Positions 36,871 through 58,865 of a DNA stretch of 64,000 nt are shown one piece after another (position 1 is the stretch's first letter; each line of letters begins with the position of its first letter). The DNA lies in NCBI GenBank assembly GCA_035285025.1, contig JAYKHY010000064.1, positions 5,895-69,894 of the forward strand. Reading direction: 5' to 3'. The position numbers were made by a program, and so were the translations under genes. Origin of the DNA: Vampirovibrionales bacterium (GTDB lineage: Bacteria > Cyanobacteriota > Vampirovibrionia > Vampirovibrionales > JAJTHC01). The notes under the pieces were generated by a model, which saw nothing but the letters and a program-made list of their open reading frames with translations, searched no databases and had not been told where the DNA came from.

Positions 36871-37950
36871 TTGAGCGGCGAGAAAACAGAACAGCCTACA
36901 GGTAAAAAACTAAGCCAGGCCCGAAGCCAGGGCCAGGTTGCGCGCAGCCAGGATTTAAACCGCGCGGTGGTGCTGGTGGCGGCGGCTCTGGTGTTTTGGT
37001 TTGGCGGCAAGTATTTTGCCGCAAGCATGCTCGGGTTAATCTCGGGGGATTTGCACCGCCTGGTCGATAGCGGGTTTGACCGCCCGTTGACGCGCTCTGG
37101 GTTTACGGCGTTGCTGCAGCACACCATCGAGGCTTCGATATTAATGCTGCTGCCCTTTGGGTTAACCATTGCGGCACTGGGCACGGCAATCAACTTTGCC
37201 CAGGTTGGGTTTCATCTTAGTTTTAAACCGTTGCAACCCAACCTGAGCAAAATCAACCCGATTCCGGGCACCAAACGCTTTTTTTCGATGACGACGACCG
37301 TCGAAACGCTGAAATCCCTGCTAAAAATGACGCTGATTGGCAGCATGGTGGCTTCGATTATCTGGGGTAATCATAAAACGCTACTTAGTACCGCCAGCAT
37401 GGATATTCAATCGGCAGTCATGGCCGTTTCCGGCATTTTATCGCAACTGGTGGGCTGGGCGATTTTCTGGTTCTTGATTTTGGGCGGCGGCGACTGGTTT
37501 TACCAGCGTTACGCGTTTTTAAAGCAGCTGCGCATGAGCAAACAGGATATTAAAGACGAGCACAAGGATGCTGATGGCGACCCGAACATTAAAGCGCGGA
37601 TCCGTGCAGCCGGCCGGCAGATTGTTAGCAAGCGCCAACTGGCTGCAGTACCCATGGCCGATGTGGTGATTACCAACCCGACGCACTTTGCGATTGCGCT
37701 GCAATACGACCCGGATATTGCGCCCGCACCGCGCGTGATTGCCAAAGGCGTGGATCATTTTGCGCAAAAGATTAAAGAAGTTGCCAAGGAGAACGGCGTG
37801 CCGATGGTGGAGAACCGTCCGCTGGCGCGCACCCTGTACGATCAGGTAGATTTGGACCGTATGATCACCCCAGAGCTGTTTGTGGCTGTCGCCGAGGTGT
37901 TGGCTTTGGTCTACGCACAGCAAGGTGGCCGGCGTAAGTCTAAATCTTAA
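36871..37950 (+). CDS. flhB: flagellar biosynthesis protein FlhB
   Basis: SGEKTEQPTGKKLSQARSQGQVARSQDL and the autocleavage site NPTHFAIAL. The start codon is TTG. Confidence 0.95.
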   Translation: MSGEKTEQPTGKKLSQARSQGQVARSQDLNRAVVLVAAALVFWFGGKYFAASMLGLISGDLHRLVDSGFDRPLTRSGFTALLQHTIEASILMLLPFGLTIAALGTAINFAQVGFHLSFKPLQPNLSKINPIPGTKRFFSMTTTVETLKSLLKMTLIGSMVASIIWGNHKTLLSTASMDIQSAVMAVSGILSQLVGWAIFWFLILGGGDWFYQRYAFLKQLRMSKQDIKDEHKDADGDPNIKARIRAAGRQIVSKRQLAAVPMADVVITNPTHFAIALQYDPDIAPAPRVIAKGVDHFAQKIKEVAKENGVPMVENRPLARTLYDQVDLDRMITPELFVAVAEVLALVYAQQGGRRKSKS

Positions 37951-39773: not shown

Positions 39774-40583
39774 CTATTGAATCAGGCGTAAGGCTTCTTC
39801 CAGCAAGGATTTGTTGGTGCTGATAATTTTATTGGTTACATCCAGTTGTAATTTAGCTTGTCGCACCATGCCCACCTGTTCATCCAGGTCAATATTGCTT
39901 TGCTCCAGCAAGCCACTGCGGATTTCGCCGGTGCCTTGTGCCGCCTCGCCCGATTGCGCGGTGGCAACGTAATGCTGGTCTTCCACTTCGGATAATCCCG
40001 ATGGGTTCGTAAAGTTGGCCAGCGCAATTTTATACAACGGCTCGGTCGTGTTGCCTTTGTCCGCTATCCCAAGCACCGTACCGTCCGAACGGATTTTATA
40101 TTCATCGTACTTGCCTAAAAACTTGCCGTTACTGGGGTCAACCCACATGGTAATTTCGCTGGTGGGCACCTGATTTGCGGGCAAGGGCGCACCGTTACTT
40201 TGTGTTGGGCTCACCACTTGGCCTTTATCATCAAGCAAATAGCCCTGCACTTTATCGCCCTTGTGATTCACTAATGTGCCATCGTTGTTAAACGTAAAAT
40301 CGCCCAGTCGCGTGTAGCGCAAGCTGCCATCATCTTTACGCACAATAAAATGGCCACGCCCTTCTATAAACAGGCTGGTTGGGCCACGGCCCGGAATCGA
40401 CTTGCCCTGATCGTCCTTGCGCGCAATGTCATCGCCGTGGACGCCGCTTAGAAAATCCGAAAACGTCATTTGGGTCTGGCGATACCCGGGCGTGTACATA
40501 TTGCCCAGGTTTTGGGTTAAGGCCCCAAACCAGTCATACACCGTTTTTTGTGTGTTGAGTGAGGTTATAAACGGATCGTACAC
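39774..40583 (-). CDS. flagellar basal-body rod protein (FlgF/FlgG family)
   Basis: N-terminal LTQNLGNMYTPGYRQ and C-terminal LLEQSNIDLDEQVGMVRQAKLQLDVTNKIISTNKSLLEEAL. I chose the GTG at 40583 because GGAGG lies 7 nt upstream; the ORF extends to the TTG at 40589. Confidence 0.85.
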   Translation of the reverse strand: MYDPFITSLNTQKTVYDWFGALTQNLGNMYTPGYRQTQMTFSDFLSGVHGDDIARKDDQGKSIPGRGPTSLFIEGRGHFIVRKDDGSLRYTRLGDFTFNNDGTLVNHKGDKVQGYLLDDKGQVVSPTQSNGAPLPANQVPTSEITMWVDPSNGKFLGKYDEYKIRSDGTVLGIADKGNTTEPLYKIALANFTNPSGLSEVEDQHYVATAQSGEAAQGTGEIRSGLLEQSNIDLDEQVGMVRQAKLQLDVTNKIISTNKSLLEEALRLIQ

Positions 40584-40916
40584 GTGCAAGCCTCCGTAGT
40601 GCTACGCTCTAGGAATCGTCTAAATCATCTTTAAACGTAGGCTTTTGGCCTAAAAGTCACCCTTTACCCGCTAGGGCATTTAAAACTGCTTTTACAGGCC
40701 GTTTTCCTGCGTTTACGGCTAAGCCAACGGCGTTTTGAATGCGATTAAAGTCAAATTGACCTCTTTATGAAGAGGGCTGTTTGCTTAAAGCGTACTCAGG
40801 TTTGCGCGCATGGCAACATGGGCGTTAGCCCAGCCAACTTATTTAAAAGCGTCAATCTTCCACTCCTAAAGCCGATTTACACTCAGCAATGCGTTAAACC
40901 CCTCTCAAGCTTTGTA

Positions 40917-44233: not shown

Positions 44234-45814
44234 CTATTCCTTGAGTGTTTCGGCAAGTGTGTCGGCGATGGCCTGGACGTCTGCCAGATTTAAACCGGTT
44301 GCCTTCGCCAGGCGTGAGCCGTAATCAGCATCTGCTTTGTAACAGAACGCCGTAATACGGTTTTTAACGGCTGTGTTGGTGACCTGTTTTAAATCGCCCG
44401 AAAAATTCGAGACCAGGTTGGTTTTTTCTTGCGCCGTAAACGAGCGGTATAGTTCGCCCGCTTGTTTAAAGTTGAGCGTTTTGGTTATGCCGCGCTGTTG
44501 CGTTGTGCCGTTCAGCGGGGTTTCGGTTAGTTTAAAGTTGGCGTCATCGGTAAACCCGTCTTCGCTAATGCTGGGTTGGTAGTTAATGTCGCTGGTTTGT
44601 TTTTTCAGGAACCCCTCGCCCGCTTGATTATGGTTATTTACCTTGGCAAGCGGCATGTTAATGGGGAGTTGCTGGCCATTTACGCCAAGCCGGTAGCGCT
44701 GGGTATCGGTGTATGAGAACAAACGTCCCTGTAGTAATCGATCTTCCGAAGGTTCAATCCCCGGAATCAGGTTTGCGGGCGAGGGGGCAAACCGTTCAGT
44801 TTCGTTAAAATAGTTTTGGGGCATTTTGTTGAGCGTTAATTTACCCACGCGCACTTCGGGGACTAAATCGGTCGGCCAGATTTTCGTGGCATCCAACGGG
44901 TTAAACTCAAATGCGTTTAACTTGTCTGCCTCTAAAACCTGAACCATTAAGTCCCAGCTGGGGTAATTCCCGGCCGCAATCGCTTTACGAAGATCGTTGG
45001 TGTGCAGGTTAAAATCCTGGCCGCCCGCCTCGGTTGCTTGCTGCGCTGTAAAGGTTTTTAGGCCCTGGTTGCTTTTCCAGTGGAATTTGGCGTAATGAAC
45101 CTTGCCTTCGGCGTTGATCAGTTTGTAGGCATGCACGCCAAATCCGTCCATGGTTCTCAGGCTGGCAGGGGTGCCTTGGTCTGAGTATAAAAACGTCAGC
45201 ATGTGCGTGCTTTCGGGTTGATGCGAGAAAAAGTCAAACCAGCGGTTGGGGTCTTGCACATTGCTCACGGGCGAGGGTTTAAGCGAATGCACCATGTCGG
45301 CAAACTTAATGGCATCGCGGATAAAAAACACGGGCAGGTTATTGCCGACTAAATCCCAGTTGCCCGATTCTGTATAAAAGCGCGTGGCAAATCCGCGCGG
45401 ATCGCGTAGCGTCTCTGGCGAGCCGCTGGCGTTAATTACCGTCGAAAAGCGAACAAACACCGGGGTTTTAAGGCCAGGCTTTTGCAGGGGCGCCAACCGG
45501 GTCAGCGCTGATAAATCGGTATAACTCTCAAATTCGCCGTGGGCGCCTACACCGCGCGCGTGTACCACGCGCTCCGGGATGCGTTCGCGATCAAACGCGG
45601 CCAGTTTTTCGATCAAATGAACATCTTGCAGTAGCGTCGGGCCGGTTGGGCCTGCGGTTTGGCTGTTCTGGTTGTCGCCAACGGGCGCGCCATTGTTACG
45701 CGTTAGGGTGGGCGCTTCGGCAAGGGCGATTAAACTTAACGCGTTGATTACACTTGAAACCCCAAGGGTAAGCGCTAGGGCAACCGGAGTCACGCGATTG
45801 GTGCGGCGATTCAT
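44234..45814 (-). CDS. monofunctional heme catalase with an N-terminal signal peptide
   Basis: FDRERIPERVVHARGVGAHGEF, RFSTV, and the signal-like N-terminus RVTPVALALTLGVSSVINALSLIALAEA. Confidence 0.95.
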   Translation of the reverse strand: MNRRTNRVTPVALALTLGVSSVINALSLIALAEAPTLTRNNGAPVGDNQNSQTAGPTGPTLLQDVHLIEKLAAFDRERIPERVVHARGVGAHGEFESYTDLSALTRLAPLQKPGLKTPVFVRFSTVINASGSPETLRDPRGFATRFYTESGNWDLVGNNLPVFFIRDAIKFADMVHSLKPSPVSNVQDPNRWFDFFSHQPESTHMLTFLYSDQGTPASLRTMDGFGVHAYKLINAEGKVHYAKFHWKSNQGLKTFTAQQATEAGGQDFNLHTNDLRKAIAAGNYPSWDLMVQVLEADKLNAFEFNPLDATKIWPTDLVPEVRVGKLTLNKMPQNYFNETERFAPSPANLIPGIEPSEDRLLQGRLFSYTDTQRYRLGVNGQQLPINMPLAKVNNHNQAGEGFLKKQTSDINYQPSISEDGFTDDANFKLTETPLNGTTQQRGITKTLNFKQAGELYRSFTAQEKTNLVSNFSGDLKQVTNTAVKNRITAFCYKADADYGSRLAKATGLNLADVQAIADTLAETLKE

Positions 45815-48455: not shown

Positions 48456-49472
48456 TCAACGCGTTACGAGTGCTTGCTGCGCGTGCGCCCAGTGACAAGC
48501 CGCCCAGTGTTCGCTTGTGCTGCGCTTGATGCCAATCGCCTCTGGCGTGGTGCCTTCGCATTGCGGTAGGGCATGCGGGCAGCGCGGCGTAAACGCGCAC
48601 CCACTTGCGGGGATTTTATCCAGCGTCGGCGGCATGCCGGTAATCGGGTTTAACTGATGCACCCCCGGCCTGGGGATTGATTGCAACAAGGCTTGCGTAT
48701 ACGGATGACTCGGTTGATGAAACAGCGATTCGACTGCCGCGTATTCTACAATTTTGCCGGCATACATTACGGCAACGCTATCGCACAGTTCGGCAACCAC
48801 GCCTAAATCGTGCGTAATCATTAAAATGGCCAGGTTGTATTCTGCGCGCAAGGTTCTAAAGAGATCCAGAATTTGCGCCTGAACCGTGACATCTAGCGCC
48901 GTGGTGGGTTCGTCTGCAATTAACAGTTTAGGCGAGCAGGCCAGCGCCATTGCAATCAGGACGCGTTGCCGCATGCCGCCCGAAAATTGATGCGGGTAAT
49001 CGTTAAGGCGATCTTTTGCCTGCGGAATTCGAACCTGATCAAGCAGTGTGATGGCTTTTGCACGGGCCTGTTGCGCGCTTAGGTGCAAATGATGCTGAAG
49101 AATCTCGATCAGTTGATTGCCAATCGTCAGCACCGGATTCAGCGAGGTCATCGGATCCTGCGGAATATAGGCAACTTGTTTGCCACGGATGCCACGTAGC
49201 TGGCGCTCGTTAAGCTGGGTTAGCTCGGTGCCGCCTAGTAAAATACGGCCTTGCGTAAGCGTAGCGGTTTGGGGTAACAACCCCAGTACGCTTAAACTGG
49301 TCAGGCTTTTGCCGCAACCGGATTCGCCGACCAGCCCCAGAATTTCGCCCTCGTGCAGGGTAAGCGATAATTCTCGCACAGCTTGCAGCGGACGGGTTTT
49401 AGTCTCAAACGCAATGCTTAATTGTTTAATTTCTAGCAGTGGAGCGGGGGAATGCGGTGCCATTTGATACAA
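48456..49472 (-). CDS. oligopeptide/dipeptide-type ABC transporter ATP-binding protein (OppD/DppD-like), with no adjacent permease
   Basis: [26 protein letters not shown], and the C-terminal oligopeptide-transporter extension [12 protein letters not shown]...C..C. Confidence 0.85.
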
Positions 49473-49904: not shown

Positions 49905-51302
49905 ATGAACGGGGTTCTAGCCGAAATTTTTAGCGATAAGCCATACAGCGCGAGTCGTAATTTTTTAGTGACCGCCATTTTCTGGCTTTTGTTCGGGGTG
50001 CTGGCAGGGCTGCTTGCAGGCGCCCTGATGGTTTGGCCCGATTTGACCAAGGGCGTAGCGCAACTGAATTTTGGTAAGGTTCGGCCGTTGCACATTAACG
50101 GTATTCTGGTTGGCTGGCTCTCGATGGCGTATGTGGGGTGCATGTTTTACCTCTCGACGCTGCTCTCGAAGCGTGACCGTTTATGGAGCGAGATGCTGGG
50201 TAACGTGACCTGTGTGGTCTGGAACCTGCTGATGGTGTTTGGCTTGCTTGCCATTGCCAACGGCTACACCGAGGCGCGCGAATATGCCGAGATGAACGGT
50301 ATTTTTGACTGGATGGTCATGGCAGGCCTGTTGCTGACAGGCGTTAACGTATACGCCACGATTTTGACCGGTCCCGAGAAAAAATGGTACGTCAGCACCT
50401 GGTACTTTTTAGGGGCGCTGTTCTGGTTCCCGATTGTTTACCTGATTGGTAACCGCGCGTTCGTCTCGTTTAACGGGTTAAACGATGCGATTGCAGGATG
50501 GTTTTATGGCCACAACATTTTGGGGATGTGGTTTACCGTGGGCGGCGTTGGGATTTTGTATTACCTGTTGCCCCGGTATTCCGGGAATCCGCTGTACAGT
50601 CACACGCTGTCGATGATTGGCTTCTGGACCATTGGGATGTTCTACGCGCCTACGGGTACGCACCATTTGTTGCAAGCCCCGGTGCCTGAGTGGCTGAAAG
50701 CCATTGCGGTTATCTCGAGCGTGTTTTTGCTGGTGCCCGTGTTTACCGTGTTGATTAACTTTTTTATGACGCTCAAGGGTAAATGGGGATTAGCCGCAGA
50801 ACATGTGCCGATGCGCTTTGCCATTGCGGCCGGATTTGGCTACTTGCTCACGTGTATTCAAGGGCCGTTCCAGGCTACCCGGAGTATTAACTGGTACATT
50901 CACTTTAGCCATTGGGTGGTGGGTCACGCGCACCTGGCGTTGCTGGCCACGTTCTCGATGATCTCGTTCTCGGCGATTTACTTTATTATTCCGCGCATTG
51001 TGCAGCGCAAAGTCTATAGTCGCGGTCTGGCCATCTGGCACTTTTGGCTCACGTTGATTGGCTGGATTGTGATGGTGGTGGATTTAACCATCGCGGGTTT
51101 GATTCAGGCGGCGGGCTGGCACTTTAACATTGTTGTTGACCAGTGGGCCATTGAGATGGAACCGTACATGTTTGTTCGCTTCCTGTCGGGTGTGATGATC
51201 GTCGCGGGTCAAGTGCTATTTATGATCAATATTTACAAAACCGTGTTTGATAAAAACGGCGAAGCGTTGCCCAAGTCGCCCAGTGGTCAGTTGTACGTGT
51301 AA
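49905..51302 (+). CDS. ccoN: cbb3-type cytochrome c oxidase subunit I
   Basis: 12-TM heme-copper oxidase with PTGTHHLLQ and HFSHWVVGHAHLALL, typical of C-family subunit I. I chose the start at the ATG at 49905 because AAGGA lies upstream. Confidence 0.9.
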   Translation: MNGVLAEIFSDKPYSASRNFLVTAIFWLLFGVLAGLLAGALMVWPDLTKGVAQLNFGKVRPLHINGILVGWLSMAYVGCMFYLSTLLSKRDRLWSEMLGNVTCVVWNLLMVFGLLAIANGYTEAREYAEMNGIFDWMVMAGLLLTGVNVYATILTGPEKKWYVSTWYFLGALFWFPIVYLIGNRAFVSFNGLNDAIAGWFYGHNILGMWFTVGGVGILYYLLPRYSGNPLYSHTLSMIGFWTIGMFYAPTGTHHLLQAPVPEWLKAIAVISSVFLLVPVFTVLINFFMTLKGKWGLAAEHVPMRFAIAAGFGYLLTCIQGPFQATRSINWYIHFSHWVVGHAHLALLATFSMISFSAIYFIIPRIVQRKVYSRGLAIWHFWLTLIGWIVMVVDLTIAGLIQAAGWHFNIVVDQWAIEMEPYMFVRFLSGVMIVAGQVLFMINIYKTVFDKNGEALPKSPSGQLYV

Positions 51303-51313
51303 AGGTTAATGCC

Positions 51314-51625
51314 ATGCAAGTGATTTCGGCAAGTAAAACCCCTATTGGTATTAAACACGCGAAGTTTGGACAAAAAAAATGCACGCCCAAAGAAAATGCC
51401 GAGATTGCCTCATTCTTTAGACTTATGGCTACAGGGCAACTTCATATTGCCAGGCAAATCAATAATGAACAAAAGAAAAATCCTCATGTGGATTTGCAAA
51501 GAAATTTAATTCATCTTTTTGAGCTTGCATCGGAAAATTTTCGAGCAGCAGCTCAAATCCAAAAAGAAGGTATCGAGGCGGTTTTAGATAAAAACGCCGC
51601 AAAAAAAAGCAAAAATAAAATTTAG
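51314..51625 (+). CDS. hypothetical Lys-rich soluble protein, markedly A/T-rich gene
   Basis: 103-aa ORF sustained in a clearly low-GC segment. It is located between ccoN and ccoO. No TM segment and no motif. Confidence 0.5.
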   Translation: MQVISASKTPIGIKHAKFGQKKCTPKENAEIASFFRLMATGQLHIARQINNEQKKNPHVDLQRNLIHLFELASENFRAAAQIQKEGIEAVLDKNAAKKSKNKI

Positions 51626-51660
51626 TCTATTTATTATCTGCTTACAAAGCAAAGTGCGCT

Positions 51661-52635
51661 ATGAACGATAAACTGACCTATATTATTGGTGGCTGTTTCG
51701 TCGCCCTGATCTTTCTGACGATCATCTTCATCACCACCATTCTGCCCTCGGCCACCTTCCAGCCCAAATCCTCCGAAGGCGTCCAGCCTTACACCGCGCA
51801 AGAATGGCGGGGCCGTAACATCTACCGCCAAGAGGGCTGTTTTTACTGCCACTCGCAGTTTAACCGCTACCAGGATTGGGAAGGCGGCGAGCTAAGCCAG
51901 GCGGGCGATTACACGTTTGATACGCCGCATACGCTAGGCACCGAGCGCACCGGCCCGGACTTGTCTAACATTGGTGGCAAATACGCCGATGCCTGGCACG
52001 TGGCCCACCATCGCGACCCGCGCAAGGTCAAGCCGGGCTCAATTATGCCTTCGTTTAATCACCTGAGTGATGAAGACATGACGGATTTGGTGGCTTACTT
52101 GCAAACGCTGGGTCGTAACCGTAAATTGCCACGCTGGATTGCGCCGCCGCAAGAAATCCGCGACCATTACGCGCTGATTGCCGAAAAAGTTGATGTCAAC
52201 TCGAGCGCGGCGGCTAACGCCGGCCGGGGTATTTTTATGCAGAACTGCGCACAATGCCACGGCGTAAACGCGCAAGGCAACGGCCCGGTAAGCGCGACGA
52301 TGCAAAGCAAGCCTGCTAACCTGACGCGTAACTACTTTAAAGCTTACAGCGATGACATGCTTTACTACCGCATTGCGCACGGCGTGCCCGGTAGCCGGAT
52401 GCCGCGCTGGGCGAAATCGCTGAGTGACGAGAGCTTGCTGTACTTAACGGCGTACGTAAAAACGCTGCCCAAGGCGGCTGATGCGCCGAACCCCGAGGTT
52501 ACCGAGCTGAATGCGCTCGATAAGCCTGAGGCCCTGAGTGCCAACTTTAACCAGATTCAATCGCTGAATCCGAATCATCACGATGAGGATGCGCGGTACT
52601 TATACGGTTATGGTCGCCCTAGCGGTGGACATTAA
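51661..52635 (+). CDS. ccoO: cbb3 oxidase subunit II (CcoO) fused to an additional C-terminal monoheme cytochrome c domain
   Basis: N-terminal TM anchor, CFYCHSQ, GTERTGPDLSNIGGKY and GSIMPSF (CcoO). A second CxxCH follows (NCAQCHGVNAQGNG...RMPRW). Confidence 0.85.
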   Translation: MNDKLTYIIGGCFVALIFLTIIFITTILPSATFQPKSSEGVQPYTAQEWRGRNIYRQEGCFYCHSQFNRYQDWEGGELSQAGDYTFDTPHTLGTERTGPDLSNIGGKYADAWHVAHHRDPRKVKPGSIMPSFNHLSDEDMTDLVAYLQTLGRNRKLPRWIAPPQEIRDHYALIAEKVDVNSSAAANAGRGIFMQNCAQCHGVNAQGNGPVSATMQSKPANLTRNYFKAYSDDMLYYRIAHGVPGSRMPRWAKSLSDESLLYLTAYVKTLPKAADAPNPEVTELNALDKPEALSANFNQIQSLNPNHHDEDARYLYGYGRPSGGH

Positions 52636-52671
52636 TCGAACCTGTTGATGTATATAAGAGGCTAAAAGTTT

Positions 52672-52842
52672 ATGTGCCCTTCATGTTTATCTGGTGGCCT
52701 TGGCGTTGGGTATTACGCGGCGTTTGCGATTTGCGGCCTGTTTTTCGTCGTCGCGGCGGGTGCGCTGTTTTGGGCGGCTAAAGCCGGTAAGCTGGACAAT
52801 ATGGAGCAATCCAAGTTTTCTATTTTAGAAGATGCCGAATAA
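52672..52842 (+). CDS. ccoS: CcoS/FixS-like small membrane protein (below the ORF-track cutoff)
   Basis: 56 aa, translated by hand as MCPSCLSGGLGVGYYAAFAICGLFFVVAAGALFWAAKAGKLDNMEQSKFSILEDAE. One TM segment followed by FW..K.G..D..E....IL.D, as in CcoS. Confidence 0.6.
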   Translation: MCPSCLSGGLGVGYYAAFAICGLFFVVAAGALFWAAKAGKLDNMEQSKFSILEDAE

Positions 52843-52894
52843 ATCGACGCTACGTGCCTTGTGACGCAATGACCTTAATTAACTGACGCCAGTT

Positions 52895-53089
52895 ATGGCA
52901 GGAATCAACATTATGACCGATCACCCGCAACCCGCTACCGAAATGCCCTCGCCGACGCCCGTCGAGGCTTCTCACGATTACGCCGAATTTGAAATTGGTC
53001 ACCACCCGGTGCCCTGGTTTTTATGGCTGTTTTTTGGCGGTATTATTGCTTGGGCCTCCATCTCCTGGATTAAGTTTTTTGGCTACTAA
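52895..53089 (+). CDS. stand-alone FixP/CcoP N-terminal-like membrane anchor
   Basis: HDYAEFEIGHHPVPWFLWLFFGGIIAWASISW resembles the FixP_N motif (DGI.E.DN.LP.WW..F). At 64 aa it has no heme motif. Confidence 0.55.
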   Translation: MAGINIMTDHPQPATEMPSPTPVEASHDYAEFEIGHHPVPWFLWLFFGGIIAWASISWIKFFGY

Positions 53090-53119
53090 TTTTTAATTTT
53101 ACTTTAGGATCTTTTGTTC

Positions 53120-54043
53120 ATGACTCGCCTTTTTTTGAATGCCCTGGCGCTGGTCTTCACTCTTTCTTCGGTGATTGCCCTGAGTGGTTGCACTGTTGAA
53201 AATGAGACTGATACTCGTTCGTTGTCTGCGCGCGAAGTGGTTCCTGTTAAAGATGAACGCCTTGTGCGCGAAGATTTTGCGTTCCCATCGGCACCGCCCT
53301 CGTTTAGCGCGGGTAAACAGGTATTTGCCCAAAATTGTGCCAGTTGCCATGCGGGTAATTTCTGGCAGCAGCGTTCGGTGCAGACCAAATTGGCTTACAG
53401 CACGCCCATCGATACCTATTTGATGCTGACGACGGGCGAGGCGCCAGAGGTGCAGAACCCTAGTGCGCAGCGCGTCCAGAAAGCTTTACCTGCCAAACAC
53501 CCTGCGTTTTCGGATAAATTGACGCGTGATGAGCGCTGGGCCGTCTTGTTTTATGTTCGTCATTTAGCAGGTTCGAGCGATTTTGAGTACACGAACCGTG
53601 CGGGCAAACCCGTGAGCGTGGCCAGTGTTTACGGGGCAAACTGTGCTGTGTGCCACGGTAAAGAAGGCTATGGTAACGGTCCGCTACATACGGGCCACCC
53701 CAGCAGCCACGAACTTGCTGCGGGTAAGGTACACAGCGGCTTGTTCATTCCGCCGCCAGCGAACTTCCACGATTACCGACGCCTATACAACCGTACGGAC
53801 GCGCAATTGGTGAAGTATATCCGCGAAGGTATTTATCCTTCGGGGATGCCCGCTTGGCTGGGCGCAGTGGACAAAGATAATGATTTTGTTTTTGACGACA
53901 AGATGATTTTAAAGCTGGTGCAGCATGTACGCACATTTGGGTTTAAAAACGACTTACCTGAAGATCAGGTGCCACCTGCTGGTTTAACTCAAGTCCCTGC
54001 GTTGTCTGAGCCGGGCGTTCAGGGTAATAACATTAAGCGTTAA
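53120..54043 (+). CDS. diheme c-type cytochrome, probable lipoprotein
   Basis: Lipobox VIALSGC and two CxxCH motifs (NCASCHAG and NCAVCHGKEGYGNG). I chose the start at the ATG at 53120 because AGGA lies upstream. Confidence 0.8.
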   Translation: MTRLFLNALALVFTLSSVIALSGCTVENETDTRSLSAREVVPVKDERLVREDFAFPSAPPSFSAGKQVFAQNCASCHAGNFWQQRSVQTKLAYSTPIDTYLMLTTGEAPEVQNPSAQRVQKALPAKHPAFSDKLTRDERWAVLFYVRHLAGSSDFEYTNRAGKPVSVASVYGANCAVCHGKEGYGNGPLHTGHPSSHELAAGKVHSGLFIPPPANFHDYRRLYNRTDAQLVKYIREGIYPSGMPAWLGAVDKDNDFVFDDKMILKLVQHVRTFGFKNDLPEDQVPPAGLTQVPALSEPGVQGNNIKR

Positions 54044-54132
54044 GCCAAATCTGCTGCCCGGCAGGCGCACAATACGTTTAGCATATGCTCTTTTATTGAA
54101 TTCATTCGTGATTAAACCGAGGTTAATTCGTC

Positions 54133-54789
54133 GTGGATCGCCGATCATTTTTAAAACTGTTGCTTAGCCTCCCCATGCTGGGCGTGGCGGGCGCGTTTAT
54201 GTCGCCATCGTTGCGCTATTTGCGGCCAACGCTGGGTCCATTAACGGCCTCTAAAATCGATACCAAGAACAAGCCCTTTACTGAATGGGTGGGCGAAGGT
54301 GGCCTGATTGCCAAGCCCGATAAACCGGAGAAGGAGCGTGACGTGCGCTTTAAGGTTTCGGATTTTGCCAAGCCCTGGGATGTCCAGACGTTTACGTTTG
54401 GCCAGCGCAGTACCGAGTACACTGCAAATGGGTTCCAGGCGACGCGCATTCCTGCGTTTGCGATTCGGTTACCCGAAGATAAAGATGGCAAGCCTGATTT
54501 TTACGTCATCAGTCGGATTTGTCCGCACATGGGCTGCGTGTTTAATTACCTGCAAGACCCTGTAGAAGCGGCCAACTATAACTATCCGCAGGCCAAGGAC
54601 CCATTATTTGCGTGTCCTTGCCACTTGAGCGTGTTTGACCCGCTGCAAACGCAGGATGACGGTAAAGGCAAGCTGATTCCGGGTAAAGTGGTGAGTGGCC
54701 CTGCGCCGCGCCCGCCCAGGCAGTTTACCTGGGCCATAGAGGGTGATGATTTAGTGATTCAGGAAGCTGAATCTGGAGGGATTTCTTAA
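54133..54789 (+). CDS. Rieske [2Fe-2S] subunit with a twin-arginine signal
   Basis: MDRRSFLK (Tat motif), CPHMGC and CPCHLSVFD. The start codon is GTG. Confidence 0.9.
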   Translation: MDRRSFLKLLLSLPMLGVAGAFMSPSLRYLRPTLGPLTASKIDTKNKPFTEWVGEGGLIAKPDKPEKERDVRFKVSDFAKPWDVQTFTFGQRSTEYTANGFQATRIPAFAIRLPEDKDGKPDFYVISRICPHMGCVFNYLQDPVEAANYNYPQAKDPLFACPCHLSVFDPLQTQDDGKGKLIPGKVVSGPAPRPPRQFTWAIEGDDLVIQEAESGGIS

Positions 54790-54790
54790 C

Positions 54791-56302
54791 ATGACTGCTC
54801 CGCAACACATACAGCAGGAGAAGCGCTGCCCCATGTCTACGATGGGCGCTTGCCTGATGAACGGCTTGATGACGGGTTACAAATGGGTTACCGAGCGCAT
54901 CGCCAAAATTGATTTGTTTGATGAGACCAAATCGGCAGAGCGTAAAACCTCGCCGTGGTACATGCTGGGTGCTATTTATTATTTGGCTTGGGTTTTGGTG
55001 ATGACCAGCGGCTTGATTCTGGTCGCGTTTTATATTCCCACAACCTCGCAGGCCTTTGATTCGATTAACGCCATCATGGCCAATGTCCCGTTCGGAAGCA
55101 TTATTCGTGGTTTCCATAAATACGGCGCAGATTGTATGATTATTGCGGCCACATTGCGGATTTATCGCATGTGGTTTGCGGGTGAGTATAAAAACAAAGG
55201 CGAGCTTACGTTTATTCTGGCACTGGTGTTGCTGCTGGTGGCCATGTATTCGGGCTTGACGGGGTACCTTTTAATCTGGAACCAGCGCGCGTTCTGGGCG
55301 ACCAAGGTGTTTGCCACGTTCCCGACCTACCTGGATATTACGCCAGGCCGATGGCATTGGCCTTGGGAAACCGTTTCGGGTCGCGATTTAACCTGGTTTA
55401 TCCCGAATGCGATTGGTGCCAGCACCAAGATTATTGGTAACTTAACGCACCAAGGGGTCACGACGTCGCAAATTCTGATGGGCGGTGCCTCGATTGGCCA
55501 AGCCACGATGACGCGGTTTTTCTCGTTGCACTTTGGGATTTCGTTGATTTTACTCGTGGTTAGCGAGCTGTATTTTTACCAGAACCGGCTTAAGCGCATT
55601 AACTTAACGCGTTGGTCGGTGCTGACTGTGGTGCTGATGCTGCTGATTACCAGCATTATTTTTCCGACGGAGTCCGGGTCTCGTGCGAACCCTGAAGTTA
55701 CGCCATTGCCGATTCTGTCGGACTGGTATTTCCTAGCGCTGTATCAAATGCTGAAGTATATGGATCCTTACTGGGCCACCATCTGGACGGTGGGAATCCC
55801 TGTGATTACGGTTGGTTTAACATTTGTGGATTTTGGCAAAGAGACCAATATCTGGAAGCGCCCCATGTTTTTCTGCCTGGCGATTATGGGCTTCATTCAG
55901 TTCGTGATTTTCTCGCTGCTCATTATTGCCAACCAGGCTAATATTGATCGCGATCCGCCTTACTGGTACGGCAGCATGGTGTTCTTTATCACGATTGGTC
56001 AGTTCTGGCACTTTGCCCTGTACCGCCAGCTGTTACCGATGATGGTCTGGGTGGGCTTTAACTTAGTGACCAGTGTGTTTTATTTGCTGCACTGGCATGT
56101 AATTTCTGCCGACTGGCTGATGTTGTGGTTCCAGGCGCAAGGCAACGTAGCGTGGAACGCAAGCAACTTGTACTGGAACCTGCTTTGGGTGATTTACAGT
56201 GTTGTCCAAGCGGCTGTGGCGGGCGCGCTGTTTTTGCCCAAGCTACCGCAGTACTTGACTCAACCCAAGCTTATCGTCACCGAGTTGACGGATGGACGGT
56301 AA
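54791..56302 (+). CDS. cytochrome b (fused b6 plus subunit-IV-like, with extra C-terminal helices), atypical heme ligation
   Basis: RGFHKYGADCM, GELTFILALV.......GLTGYLLIWNQRAFWATKV, TRFFSLH and SDWYFLALYQ (a PEWY-like motif). Only one His is present in each of helices B and D. Confidence 0.9.
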   Translation: MTAPQHIQQEKRCPMSTMGACLMNGLMTGYKWVTERIAKIDLFDETKSAERKTSPWYMLGAIYYLAWVLVMTSGLILVAFYIPTTSQAFDSINAIMANVPFGSIIRGFHKYGADCMIIAATLRIYRMWFAGEYKNKGELTFILALVLLLVAMYSGLTGYLLIWNQRAFWATKVFATFPTYLDITPGRWHWPWETVSGRDLTWFIPNAIGASTKIIGNLTHQGVTTSQILMGGASIGQATMTRFFSLHFGISLILLVVSELYFYQNRLKRINLTRWSVLTVVLMLLITSIIFPTESGSRANPEVTPLPILSDWYFLALYQMLKYMDPYWATIWTVGIPVITVGLTFVDFGKETNIWKRPMFFCLAIMGFIQFVIFSLLIIANQANIDRDPPYWYGSMVFFITIGQFWHFALYRQLLPMMVWVGFNLVTSVFYLLHWHVISADWLMLWFQAQGNVAWNASNLYWNLLWVIYSVVQAAVAGALFLPKLPQYLTQPKLIVTELTDGR

Positions 56303-56669
56303 CATCACGAAGCCTTCAACGCCTCAAGGGGCTGCCGGCGCCCATGCTACGCATTGCGAACCTGGCAGCCCACCGCAAATGCCAATTGAGACCGAGCTAT
56401 TGACCGGCCCGATTCGGGGGCTCAACACGATTGCCTGGTGGGCCGTGTTTTTACTCTGCGCGGTAGGACTTTCGTGGGTGTTTGAGACGTTTAAGCAGTT
56501 TACGCTGGTGCCTAATCTAACCAATGGGTTGTTGCTGGCAGGGGCGTTTTTCATTTTACTTGGCGCGTTTGTATTGCTGTTGTACGATAGTTACGCAAAA
56601 GAAAAGCAAAAAGATAAAATCACGCGTCCGTTTGCGTTGTTTGAAGCCTGGTATCATCGCAAACGTTGA
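56292..56669 (+). CDS. small membrane protein, start overlapping the cytochrome b stop
   Basis: Its ATG overlaps the cytochrome b stop by 11 nt, which suggests translational coupling. Two predicted TM segments. No motif. Confidence 0.5.
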   Translation: MDGNITKPSTPQGAAGAHATHCEPGSPPQMPIETELLTGPIRGLNTIAWWAVFLLCAVGLSWVFETFKQFTLVPNLTNGLLLAGAFFILLGAFVLLLYDSYAKEKQKDKITRPFALFEAWYHRKR

Positions 56670-56926
56670 GCCCGCCCGCACTCACACAAATCCTGAAAGG
56701 CGACATGTGCGTTTAATCTTATCGCCCCGTTTTGGAGCAAAGTTGCCCGAAAATAAAACGCTAATCCGAATACTGGTGAGGATTCAAGACAAAAAAGAGT
56801 CCCTGTTAGAACATATGAGCTTGGTAAGCGGATTACTGAGCAACAAGATGAGTTTAGAGTGTTGATGGAAGGCCCAGATCGTCAAGGCGGTCTAGAATTT
56901 TAAAATTATTGCTTGGAGTTCAGGAT

Positions 56927-57184
56927 ATGTCTTATAAAGCAAAACAGCAGCCCGGTTTTTTGGCGATTTTGATTACTTTTTTGGCCATTGGCGTTACGTT
57001 GGCGGTGTTACCAATGGTGCTCAAGGGCGATGCGCTGGTTGATATGCTTGATCAACCGGCGGTCATGCTCGAAGGTCTCAAGCTGTTTTACGCGGGCGTT
57101 GGTGGCGCGCTATTAGCCTTGGGCGTTGCGTATGTGATTGTTGATAAGCAAGACCCGGTAAAGACCCAGCCCGGCGAAGAATAA
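56927..57184 (+). CDS. small membrane protein
   Basis: GGAG lies 9 nt upstream of the ATG at 56927. Two predicted TM segments. It is followed by a strong terminator. Confidence 0.5.
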   Translation: MSYKAKQQPGFLAILITFLAIGVTLAVLPMVLKGDALVDMLDQPAVMLEGLKLFYAGVGGALLALGVAYVIVDKQDPVKTQPGEE

Positions 57185-57206: not shown

Positions 57207-57242
57207 TAAAAAGGTTCATGCGTTACCATGAACCTTTTTTTG
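57207..57242. terminator. bidirectional rho-independent terminator between the respiratory cluster and pepA
   Basis: AAAAAGGTTCATG, loop cgttac, CATGAACCTTTTTTT. A 13-bp stem with an A-run and a T-run on either side. Confidence 0.75.
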
Positions 57243-57281: not shown

Positions 57282-58865
57282 TCAAGCCAAATTCAGCAGG
57301 TAATACAGCAGCGTGCGGACGCCGTAGCCGGTGGCACCCTTGGGCACCTCGGGCCAATCTTTGCCGGTATAAGCCGGGCCTGCAATATCCAGGTGCGCCC
57401 ACGCGCGGGATTTATCCACAAAGGCCTGCAAAAATACGCCGCCTTTGCTGCTGCCCGCTTCGCCTTTAGCGCCCGAGTTAATCAAATCGGCGACCGGGCT
57501 TTTGAGGCAATCTTTATACTCGTCGTAAATGGGTAAGGGCCAAAGGTATTCGCCTGCGCGTTCTGCCGAGGCCAGCAACGCGTCAATCAAAGGCTGGCTG
57601 ACCTTGGGGGTACCCATAATCGCGGCGGCTTCTTTACCTAGCGCGATGACGCACGCGCCTGTCAGGGTGGCCAGGTCAATGAGCTCATCCGGGTTGCATT
57701 GCTTTTGCGCATAGGTTAGCGCATCCGCCAGAATCAACCGGCCTTCAGCGTCGGTGTTGTTAATTTCGATGGTCTTACCGTTCATAGCGGTAATCACATC
57801 GCCCGGGCGGCCGGCGTGGCCGCTGGGCATGTTTTCGCACGCAGGAATAAACGCCTCAACGCGGTGTTTTACCGCTTGGGGCGTACCCGCTAAGCGGGCA
57901 ATGGCGCCCATGGTGCTGATGGCTGCGGCTGCGCCGGCCATGTCCATTTTCATCAATTCCATGGCGCCTGCTGGCTTGAGCGACAAGCCGCCGCTATCGA
58001 ACGTGACGCCTTTGCCAACAATCGCAATGGTTTTGATGGGCTCCGAGTTGCCGGACGCTGCTTTTTCTGAGGGTTTATAACTTAAATGAATCAGTTTAGG
58101 CGGCTCGATGCTGCCTTTGGCGACTTGCCAAAACGCGCCCATACCCAGTTGCTGGATTTCATCCGGCCCCAGCACGGTGCATTGTAAGCCTTCGATCTGT
58201 AGTGCTTGCTCGGCCAAATACGTGGGCGTCACGTTATTAGCGCTGTCAAACACCCAATCGCGGGCGGTGCAGGTGGCCTGAGCAATAATCTCGCCCAGCT
58301 GAATACCCGGTTGCAACGTTGCGTGTTGCGCTTCTGGGGCGATTATATGCAGAGTTTTAAGCCCACCGTAGGCGTTAGGCCCCGTTTTTGCGGCGTTGCC
58401 TTTTAGGGTATCAAACTGGTACGCGCCTAAAATTGCGCCTTCGGCCAGTAGGCGGGCCGACGATGCGTCATCAAGCTCGGGGCTGTTAGCGGATTCAAAG
58501 GCAAGTGCAACCGAGGCTAGCTTAAGTCGCATTGCTGCTCGGATGCCTGCCGCCACTGAGCGCCGCAAGGCTTTGGCGTTTAAATCTTCTTTTTTGCCCA
58601 AGCCCACTGCAATAATGTAGGGCGCTTGCAGTTTGCCGTAGGTCGGTATCGCGCTGGCATCGCCCAGTTTGCCTTTAAAGGGTTTGTGCAGTTTTAAATG
58701 CTCAATAAGCGCGTTGCCCAGCAGGGCATCCAGCTTGCTTAGCAGTGGCGAGGATGCGCCTTGCGATGCGTCGGAGGTGGCAAAGCCCTCGTGGAGCGGA
58801 AGTAGCAGCGCCTCTGCGGCGATGGATTCAGCGGGTTGGCTGCTGAGCTGGATGGCAAGCGTCAT
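57282..58865 (-). CDS. pepA: leucyl aminopeptidase (M17)
   Basis: Motifs VGKGVTFDSGG, NTDAEGRL and DIAG. Confidence 0.95.
   Translation of the reverse strand: MTLAIQLSSQPAESIAAEALLLPLHEGFATSDASQGASSPLLSKLDALLGNALIEHLKLHKPFKGKLGDASAIPTYGKLQAPYIIAVGLGKKEDLNAKALRRSVAAGIRAAMRLKLASVALAFESANSPELDDASSARLLAEGAILGAYQFDTLKGNAAKTGPNAYGGLKTLHIIAPEAQHATLQPGIQLGEIIAQATCTARDWVFDSANNVTPTYLAEQALQIEGLQCTVLGPDEIQQLGMGAFWQVAKGSIEPPKLIHLSYKPSEKAASGNSEPIKTIAIVGKGVTFDSGGLSLKPAGAMELMKMDMAGAAAAISTMGAIARLAGTPQAVKHRVEAFIPACENMPSGHAGRPGDVITAMNGKTIEINNTDAEGRLILADALTYAQKQCNPDELIDLATLTGACVIALGKEAAAIMGTPKVSQPLIDALLASAERAGEYLWPLPIYDEYKDCLKSPVADLINSGAKGEAGSSKGGVFLQAFVDKSRAWAHLDIAGPAYTGKDWPEVPKGATGYGVRTLLYYLLNLA

Follow-up and report, generated by a model that had tools for sequence, protein, structure and literature searches.

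A cytochrome b lacking heme bH ligands in the complex III-complex IV gene cluster of a Vampirovibrionales bacterium

Genes for respiratory complexes III and IV have been found side by side in several bacterial groups. A 'complex III/IV fusion' was reported for aerobic Melainabacteria (Soo et al., 2017; Matheus Carnevali et al., 2019, PMC6349859). In the supplement of the latter article the genes of a type C heme-copper oxidase (ccoN, ccoO) adjoin 'petB, petB, petC', and the module is annotated as a 'partial' cytochrome b6f in the published accounts consulted. Acidobacteria and other phyla frequently have complex III-IV 'superoperons', with a physical association of the two complexes described as potential, and oxidases limited to CcoNO are known as a 'minimal core' (PMC8407424). 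The present work concerns a cluster of this kind, ten consecutive open reading frames (ORFs) on the + strand at positions 49905-57184 of a 64,000-nucleotide stretch of DNA, hereafter the window, from a Vampirovibrionales bacterium (assembly GCA_035285025.1, contig JAYKHY010000064.1; Table 1). It is the known complex III-IV operon of aerobic Melainabacteria/Vampirovibrionia, and its architecture is not new. What is new here is the loss of the heme bH ligands throughout its cytochrome b family, together with a cytochrome b-2[4Fe-4S]/FlpD gene pair in 71 of 72 relatives. With a probability of roughly 0.7, we read the cluster as coding for a dedicated electron route that leads from quinol to O2. 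Its parts probably form a single complex in the membrane, in which the complex III half would operate without a Q cycle.

A first-pass annotation, made from the letters of the window, had already named an uninterrupted same-strand cluster and guessed that it might be the III-IV operon reported for non-photosynthetic relatives of Cyanobacteria. The guess was right: the homologues belong to Vampirovibrionales and Melainabacteria, with the same ccoNO-pet arrangement. The ten ORFs stand at the coordinates first given, and the Pfam and NCBIfam profile searches that it recommended recover the core subunits (PF00115, FixO, Cytochrom_C, Rieske, Cytochrome_B and Cytochrom_B_C), with FixP_N as the one family left without a match. 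Its ccoO with an extra heme-c domain, ccoS-like gene, lipoprotein diheme cytochrome c, Tat-Rieske, cytochrome b and pair of small membrane proteins all hold good, as does its remark that a c1/f-type cytochrome is missing. Its FixP_N-like anchor is not confirmed, and some of its other statements need the qualifications made below.

The Rieske/cytochrome b module and its heme ligands

The cytochrome b is recognised by Pfam (Cytochrome_B, 1.8e-25; Cytochrom_B_C, 4e-7) and has at least eight predicted transmembrane segments, a b6-like N-terminal part being followed by a subunit-IV-like part and extra C-terminal helices; the database gene call begins at Met15 (54833). In a HMMER alignment with b6 structures, His109 and His247 fall on b6 His86 and His187, the ligands of heme bL. 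At the heme bH positions we find Arg123 for b6 His100 and Tyr261 for b6 His202, and at the heme ci position Met58 for b6 Cys35 (CxGG). The substitutions are a trait of the family. In 121 close homologues the four ligand positions read His, Arg (100 sequences) or Lys (21), His, Tyr, while the heme ci position holds Gln, Thr or Met in 111 of the 121 and Cys in a single one. All full-length representatives of 50%-identity clusters (drawn from 1.8 billion proteins) that match at E <= 1e-30 have Arg or Lys where the first bH ligand would stand, whereas the canonical cytochromes b, which appear in the same alignment with scores weaker than E 1e-30, have His at the four positions with rare exceptions. 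The genome loci agree, since 83 of 83 show H-x13-R/K, H-x11-E-[LI]-[YR]-x-Y and an invariant LSDWYF motif of the Qo (quinol-oxidising) type. When 21 sequences of 37-73% identity are aligned, the sole invariant histidines are 109 and 247, with Glu259, one turn from the former bH ligand position, and SDWYF invariant as well. Arg/Lys123 and Tyr/Arg261 thus occupy the bH positions in all the family members examined. As a related observation, a deeper branch of this family (the 50%-cluster representatives P0210, P0211, P0212, P0215 and P0217) has Arg at the bH position of helix B and His in helix D (E-x-H-F-Y/Q); it may represent an intermediate stage in the loss of heme bH.

From these sequences heme bH itself would seem to have been lost, the Arg/Lys123-Glu259 pair presumably filling its former pocket. 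The four axial histidines have been treated as invariable, and a survey of cytochrome b evolution removed deviating sequences by design (PMC4122944). With both bH ligands missing, the Rieske/b module does not qualify as a canonical complex III. Likeliest is a module with a Qo site and heme bL that lacks a transmembrane chain of b hemes, a Qi site and, for these reasons, a canonical Q cycle. The Qo-type motif, SDWY(F), has Asp at the Glu272 position and Ser instead of Pro when compared with P(E/D)WY. Asp-type motifs (xDWY) are associated with menaquinol oxidisers (PMC4122944), which by analogy suggests a low-potential quinol, such as menaquinol, as the substrate.

The Rieske partner begins with MDRRSFLK, a Tat motif, and its CPHMGC and CPCHLS boxes are present in the window protein as in 83 of 84 family members, although the protein is highly divergent (PF00355, 22.5 bits for a cut-off of 20.3; best PDB match, E 1.3e-3). 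Within the cluster, the Pfam and NCBIfam scans gave no match to a c1/f-type cytochrome family. That the cytochrome b is decaying, leaving a non-functional complex III half, might be argued from the fact that two of four ligands treated as invariable (PMC4122944) are missing. Yet Arg/Lys123, Glu259, SDWYF, His109 and His247 are fixed in more than 200 sequences of 37-86% identity, the frames are intact, and so are the Rieske boxes in nearly every member. A pattern fixed in this way across the cytochrome b family rules out a pseudogene, and decay of the module is scarcely credible.

The gene order is conserved too. One genome per species was scanned with a profile of the cytochrome b, yielding 307 loci, the best 80 of which were described taxonomically; these belong to Vampirovibrionales, Obscuribacterales, Caenarcaniphilales, Acidobacteriota and one gammaproteobacterial metagenome-assembled genome (MAG). 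Homologues of the cytochrome b number in the hundreds, and those of the diheme cytochrome c and cytochrome b that carry an organism name come from Vampirovibrionales, Vampirovibrio sp. and 'Candidatus Melainabacteria'. The window proteins were mapped by tblastn onto all the loci. For 69 of these the upstream sequence reaches back 5.2 kb or more from the cytochrome b gene: ccoN, ccoO and the Rieske gene are each present in 69 of 69, with neither order nor strand changed, and the diheme cytochrome c gene lies between that of a 64-aa peptide and the Rieske gene in 68. Repeated in 69 of 69 loci, this order is far beyond chance, as seen in the survey of co-occurrence in related genomes that the first-pass annotation had called for. 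The type strain of Vampirovibrio chlorellavorus, NCIMB 11383 (L013), has the same cluster. The closest locus, L004, belongs to a Vampirovibrionales MAG with 85% identity, and its synteny with the window stops directly after s2, the last gene of the cluster.

Outside the class, the same order and a bH-less cytochrome b are seen at 46-51% identity in Acidobacteriota (Holophagaceae, Solibacteraceae) and in the gammaproteobacterial MAG (L042). In the acidobacterial loci (L033, L034, L038, L041, L044, L048, L053, L055, L065, L067-L069, L071, L072, L074, L075, L079 and L080) the stretch from ccoO to the Rieske gene has its cytochrome c genes in another arrangement. This distribution implies that the whole module has been transferred horizontally.

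Most relatives have a longer unit. Among the 72 loci with at least 3.5 kb of sequence downstream, 71 continue after the small membrane proteins with a gene for a cytochrome b-2[4Fe-4S] protein of ~380-430 aa and one for FlpD (MvhD-like, PF02662), as in L001 (11989-13598), L003 (12616-14213), L013 (12140-13671) and 68 further loci. The sole exception is L004, the window's closest relative. The predicted protein has an N-terminal cytochrome b bundle, in which all complete copies retain the H-x13-H of helix B and the helix D pair is kept wherever its pattern was detected, and it has two CxxCxxCxxxC motifs. Its gene is presumably the second 'petB' of the literature. No second cytochrome b-Fer4 or FlpD gene was found in the 64-kb window, where tblastn matched the main cytochrome b alone. 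Three roles are possible for the pair: an independent donor:quinone module, a transmembrane heme path provided in trans to replace that lost by the first cytochrome b, or the terminus of a bifurcating, low-potential branch.

This pair opens the way to another interpretation of the missing ligands. In an ancestral form of eleven genes, the electron of heme bL would pass to the diheme cytochrome b-2[4Fe-4S] and FlpD, so that the low-potential branch ends on a cytoplasmic acceptor (bifurcation) or runs in reverse, and the lineage of the window would have lost that branch. It is in keeping with this that the Rieske-associated cytochrome b has no bH ligands while the second one keeps H-x13-H, two CxxCxxCxxxC motifs and, where detectable, the helix D pair, that the two genes follow the cluster almost without exception, and that 'petB, petB, petC' are listed next to ccoNO (PMC6349859). 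The argument is, however, purely positional and its acceptor hypothetical; the pair might just as well act as an independent donor:quinone oxidoreductase; and the window and L004 have no such pair at the locus, nor does the rest of the window, with the bH-less cytochrome b unchanged. We consider this interpretation quite improbable. A bolder proposal takes the cytochrome b to be a bL-only protein with an Arg/Lys-Glu pair in the bH pocket. In the ancestral eleven-gene unit, electrons would have gone from bL to the b hemes of the partner and on to cytoplasmic Fe-S clusters rather than to a Qi site. The whole would have been an O2-driven quinol-bifurcating supercomplex able to reduce a low-potential acceptor in the cytoplasm, from which the lineage of the window would have dropped the branch, leaving a linear quinol oxidase without a Q cycle. 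We offer this as a speculation that is improbable as it stands.

The oxidase and its cytochromes c

The oxidase half is headed by a CcoN recognised by PF00115 (1e-78), with the CcoN chains of cbb3 oxidases as its best PDB matches (9g6b_A, E 5e-61; 3mk7_A, 8e-59). An AAGGA ribosome-binding site lies 8 nt 5' of its ATG at 49905. It keeps RPLH, FYGHN, Y-x5-HH (YAPTGTHH) and GHAH, as do 70-73 of 73 relatives, so that all six metal-ligand histidines and the helix-VII tyrosine of the C family (Y-x5-HH) are present. In its FEGP motif (50850-50870, around 'CIQGPFQA') Gln is found instead of Glu, and the relatives have Gln (59) or Thr (14) at this position. The Glu, which we take to be Glu323 in P. stutzeri numbering, is presumably hydrogen-bonded to the His ligand of heme b3; Gln or Thr in its place could change the properties of this heme. 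CcoO matches FixO (PF02433) over residues 15-140 (2.4e-37) and continues with a domain matched by Cytochrom_C and Cytochrome_CBB3 at 183-269. Its two CxxCH motifs (CFYCH at residue 60, CAQCH at 196) recur in 81 of 82 family members. The additional domain resembles the last domain of CcoP (TIGR00782, 3.9e-12), and the whole protein scores 150 bits with NF011054, 'CcoO/cytochrome c bifunctional'. Both subunits fall far under the NCBIfam equivalog cut-offs (260 bits for 583 with TIGR00780 in the case of CcoN, 125 for 201 in that of CcoO), and they thus form a divergent branch of the C family. The most economical reading of these sequences is that the cytochrome c domain fused to CcoO would stand in for CcoP. 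After ccoO comes the CcoS-like peptide (PF03597, FixS, 24.5 bits for a cut-off of 23.1; just 12.6 bits with TIGR00847), found at the equivalent position in 50 of the 69 loci by tblastn, a method of limited sensitivity for peptides as short as this one and the next.

The following gene codes for the 64-aa peptide. It is 33-66% identical to peptides at the equivalent position in 44 of 69 loci, with the consensus ...E-F-E-I-G-x-H-x-V-P-W-F-L-W-x-F-F...W-A-S-I-S-W-I-x-F-F-G-Y-end (in a looser version E-F/Y-x-I-G-x-H-x-x-P-W-F-L...W-A-x-I-S-W-I-P-F-F-G-Y at the C-terminus), and is a real, conserved family. The FixP_N-like character first proposed for it finds no support: three members of the family had no Pfam match at E <= 10, and a profile of 19 sequences searched against the PDB, several CcoP chains included, retrieved nothing at that level. 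More generally, PF14715 (FixP_N) matched no ORF of the cluster at E <= 10.

The diheme cytochrome c gene has an ORF that opens with TTG at 53114, but ATG 53120, preceded by an AGGA ribosome-binding site, is the likelier start. The protein (Cytochrom_C, 1.4e-13) has a signal peptide with the lipobox LSGC, whose Cys26 is invariant in 29 homologues, and two heme-binding motifs (CASCH at residue 75, CAVCH at 177). It would be attached to the membrane through this lipobox and not by a transmembrane anchor of the CcoP type. Its position, announced as that expected of both CcoP and QcrC, is indeed between ccoNO and the Rieske/b genes; as for its identity, it is not CcoP by any test, and its best, weak matches are actinobacterial QcrC. 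Candidacy as a CcoP fails with 39 bits for a cut-off of 180 (TIGR00782), the lack of FixP_N, and a fold search without a CcoP in its top 50 matches. As a member of the QcrC family it fails as well (NF050122, 33.7 bits for a cut-off of 200), being QcrC-like in role and gene order only. Sequence matches in the PDB nevertheless rank QcrC (6e-5 to 1e-4) before CcoP (3e-3 or weaker). An AlphaFold2 model with a predicted local distance difference test score (pLDDT) of 82.5, falling below 50 in a linker at residues 27-41, has the QcrC chains 6adq_C, 7e1v_O and 7q21_C, from mycobacterial and corynebacterial III2IV2 supercomplexes, as its best two-domain Foldseek matches, weak ones (E 3e-3, TM-score 0.16-0.24); taken singly, the domains match folds like that of cytochrome c6. 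On the simplest view, the lipoprotein takes over the part of c1 or QcrC. It has 82 homologues, and in the three contexts looked up, down to 30% identity, the gene lies between ccoNO and Rieske/b; none of these was placed away from both modules, an occurrence that the first-pass annotation had counted among its refuting conditions.

The 64-aa ORF and the diheme cytochrome c share one reading frame, and a split or read-through CcoP was therefore considered and rejected: in-frame stops (TAA 53087, TAG 53105) separate them, and every homologue of the diheme protein starts with its own signal peptide and lipobox. An apparent anchor-cytochrome fusion (P0016, 392 aa, L001 8001-9179) is a gene call extended upstream in the wrong frame. 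This public call has a spurious N-terminal domain that masks the 64-aa anchor gene.

One chain or two complexes

On the reading that we prefer, the cytochrome b (SDWYF, heme bL) and the Tat-exported Rieske protein would together make up a Qo-type site, where quinol, probably menaquinol, is oxidised. From the Rieske cluster electrons would move to the periplasmic diheme lipoprotein, in place of c1/f, as with QcrC in actinobacteria, then to the extra heme-c domain of CcoO, in place of CcoP, and finally through the CcoO heme and heme b to the heme b3-CuB site of CcoN, where O2 would be reduced. Accessory or assembly functions would fall to the CcoS-like and 64-aa peptides and to s1 and s2, the two terminal proteins. 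While the cbb3 oxidase would pump, the Rieske/b module would give only the scalar protons of quinol oxidation. We infer this order of carriers from the gene products; the c-type hemes, two in CcoO and two in the lipoprotein, are the only candidate carriers between Rieske and CcoN.

A number of points weigh against this reading. One physical supercomplex is deduced from synteny; for a single operon or complex the indications are indirect (short gaps, a common strand, the terminal hairpin and the conserved synteny), and no gene fusion links the complex III and complex IV halves in 83 loci (apparent cases proved to be truncated loci or cross-hits). The absence of c1/f, CcoP and FixP_N was established for the cluster. 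The diheme cytochrome is presumed to replace c1 from its position and from weak matches (E ~1e-3 to 1e-4, TM-score 0.16-0.24). Heme bH could still be bound via unconventional ligands. The cytochrome b-2[4Fe-4S]/FlpD pair of the 71 relatives may alter the mechanism and, as it is absent from the window, the latter may be an atypical, reduced version. Finally, there are long gaps between ccoN and ccoO (359 nt, holding an insertion) and between s1 and s2 (239 nt, 56670-56908), the second with a weak promoter-like match at 56879-56906; s2 may have a transcript of its own, or a small feature may have escaped notice there. The 'hard-wired' III-IV assembly of the first-pass annotation keeps a conserved same-strand unit with neither c1/f nor CcoP; its physical supercomplex goes back to synteny, with no fusion to accompany it.

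It may be, instead, that co-located and co-regulated genes specify two separate complexes, a CcoN/CcoO-c oxidase and a Rieske/b/diheme-c reductase, whose lipid-anchored domains exchange electrons by collision. The want of gene fusions speaks for such an arrangement, as does the tethering of the diheme cytochrome by a lipid anchor alone through its low-confidence, probably flexible linker, and the association of complexes encoded by superoperons, common in other phyla, has been described as no more than potential (PMC8407424). However, order and adjacency are strictly kept across three orders of Vampirovibrionia and into Acidobacteriota; without c1 and CcoP each half would be deprived of its usual subunit for electron entry or exit; and conserved small membrane peptides are encoded both between the halves and after them, which would be typical of the subunits that glue supercomplexes. 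We regard two separate complexes as unlikely, and a single dedicated chain as the better account.

The module is the low-oxygen respiratory unit in arguments for a separate acquisition of aerobic respiration by the non-photosynthetic sister classes of Cyanobacteria, and published evolutionary conclusions treat its complex III half as b6f-like, whereas the sequences have no bH ligands, no heme ci cysteine and no c1/f. If the bH site is truly gone, we have here a widespread natural Rieske/b enzyme without a Q cycle, a direct test case for what heme bL does alone, and a warning that metabolic reconstructions should not score such genes as 'complex III' or 'b6f'.

The remaining features are of a more local nature (Table 1). 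Intergenic gaps run from -11 to 89 nt, apart from the two just mentioned. The first of these holds an insertion of about 358-359 nt with a GC content of 36.6%, against 51% for the cluster. Its ORF of 103 aa, taken at first for a gene of the cluster, does exist but is not conserved (0 of 83 loci). It is Lys-rich, with a GC content at third codon positions (GC3) of 0.31 against 0.53-0.68 in neighbouring genes, matches nothing in Pfam or NCBIfam, and is a singleton 90% cluster in a collection of 15 billion proteins. Neither tblastn nor blastn found a counterpart of the segment in 83 related loci, the 85%-identical L004 included, where the spacer between ccoN and ccoO is 44 nt. Because of this absence, its low GC and GC3 and its singleton status, we consider the segment to be a private, lineage-specific insertion and its ORF to be no conserved subunit. 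A repeat or mobile element was rejected, since neither the window nor the loci hold another copy and no repeats flank the segment.

At the other end, s1 (2-3 predicted transmembrane segments, the conserved part starting near residue 48) displays a weak positional conservation, with 28-49% identity in 21 loci by tblastn, and no credible Pfam family match. The protein s2 is 44-52% identical to the ORFs that occupy its place in L001, L004, L005 and L016, and likewise has no match in Pfam. The gap that separates them has no convincing ORF, and L001 has a comparable one. The 'strong bidirectional terminator' said to close the cluster is a real hairpin, AAAAAGGTTCATG-cgttac-CATGAACCTTTTT followed by further T (57208-57239), with a 13-bp stem, a 6-nt loop and a folding energy of -18.1 kcal/mol (z = -2.96 vs shuffles). 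As its stem holds 4 G-C pairs, we grade it as plausible rather than strong. Scans with promoter and terminator consensus sequences did not rise above what shuffled sequence gives and did not pick up this hairpin, and Rfam matched a single tRNA, distant from the cluster. Its neighbours are, on one side, the divergently oriented gene of an ABC-ATPase (48456-49472, -) and, on the other, the convergent gene of an M17 aminopeptidase (57282-58865, -). Within 15 kb upstream are catalase and flagellar genes (FlhB, FlgE/F/G-like; 44234-45814 (-), 36871-37950 (+), 39774-40589 (-)), consistent with an aerobic or microaerobic, motile lifestyle of Vampirovibrionales.

Table 1. Features of the cluster, with positions in the window and the basis of each assignment
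Feature	Position	Strand	Basis
ccoN, divergent C-family (cbb3-type) heme-copper oxidase catalytic subunit	49905-51302	+	PF00115, TIGR00780, PDB alignment
Lineage-specific A/T-rich insertion with 103-aa ORF (51314-51625)	51303-51660	+	composition; no family match
ccoO fused to C-terminal class-I cytochrome c domain	51661-52635	+	FixO; two heme-c sites
CcoS/FixS-like single-pass peptide, 56 aa	52672-52842	+	PF03597
Conserved single-pass membrane peptide ('anchor'), 64 aa	52895-53089	+	one predicted transmembrane segment; no family match
Diheme class-I cytochrome c lipoprotein, 309/307 aa	53114/53120-54043	+	two CxxCH, lipobox LSGC
Tat-exported Rieske [2Fe-2S] protein	54133-54789	+	RRSFLK, CPHMGC, CPCHLS, PF00355
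Fused cytochrome b, 503 aa	54791-56302	+	Cytochrome_B, Cytochrom_B_C
Small membrane protein s1, 125-aa ORF	56292-56669	+	transmembrane prediction
Small membrane protein s2, 91 aa	56909-57184	+	two predicted transmembrane segments
Likely bidirectional intrinsic terminator hairpin, flanked by A-run and T-run	57208-57242		sits between convergent genes

Comparison with known systems

The operon of Melainabacteria is the nearest system, from the same taxon, with ccoN/ccoO and petC/petB-like genes on one strand. The loci of V. chlorellavorus and of Obscuribacterales have the order of the window. As published, it contains two petB, of which the window and L004 lack the second, together with FlpD, and the insertion between ccoN and ccoO belongs to the window alone. 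The published descriptions consulted say nothing of a diheme c lipoprotein, of a CcoO-c fusion or of missing bH ligands, and in them we found no discussion of this loss, or of the cytochrome b-ferredoxin/FlpD partner.

Loss of a bH ligand has a precedent in Pyrobaculum, whose cytochrome b lacks one of them, interpreted as the loss of that heme (Kao and Hunte, 2014; PMC4122944); besides this case, we found no other Rieske-type cytochrome b systematically deprived of a bH ligand. Pyrobaculum is an archaeon, the context is unrelated and a single ligand is gone, whereas in the family of the window both are replaced, a trait that spans Vampirovibrionia, Acidobacteriota and one gammaproteobacterial MAG. 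Cytochrome b6f differs in another manner, having Cys35 (CxGG) for its covalent heme ci where the window has Met58.

In the proteobacterial bc1-cbb3 supercomplexes (R. capsulatus, 6xkw; P. aeruginosa, PMC10556555) electrons go from Rieske/b to membrane-attached c cytochromes and then to cbb3, much as proposed here, and their CcoN and CcoO are homologous to those of the window (E 1e-53 to 1e-61). They have, however, a c1, a three-subunit CcoNOP whose CcoP is anchored by FixP_N, genes in separate operons and a cytochrome b with all four His, whereas the window has neither c1 nor CcoP, an extra heme domain on CcoO and a single cluster.

The actinobacterial bcc-aa3 supercomplex (qcrCAB and ctaCDEF; 6adq, 7e1v, 7q21) differs from the window in its partner oxidase, an A-family aa3 where the window has a C-family cbb3, in a QcrB that keeps both b hemes, against a cytochrome b without bH ligands, and in its QcrC, from which the diheme cytochrome of the window departs by its N-terminal lipid anchor and a score far below the family cut-off. 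Yet it shares the order diheme c, Rieske, cytochrome b, as well as an Asp-type Qo motif (xDWY), and its QcrC is the best, if weak, match of the window protein in sequence and fold. There, a diheme cytochrome c is found instead of c1 and links complex III and the oxidase directly, no soluble carrier being needed, and we propose that the diheme lipoprotein of the window may do likewise.

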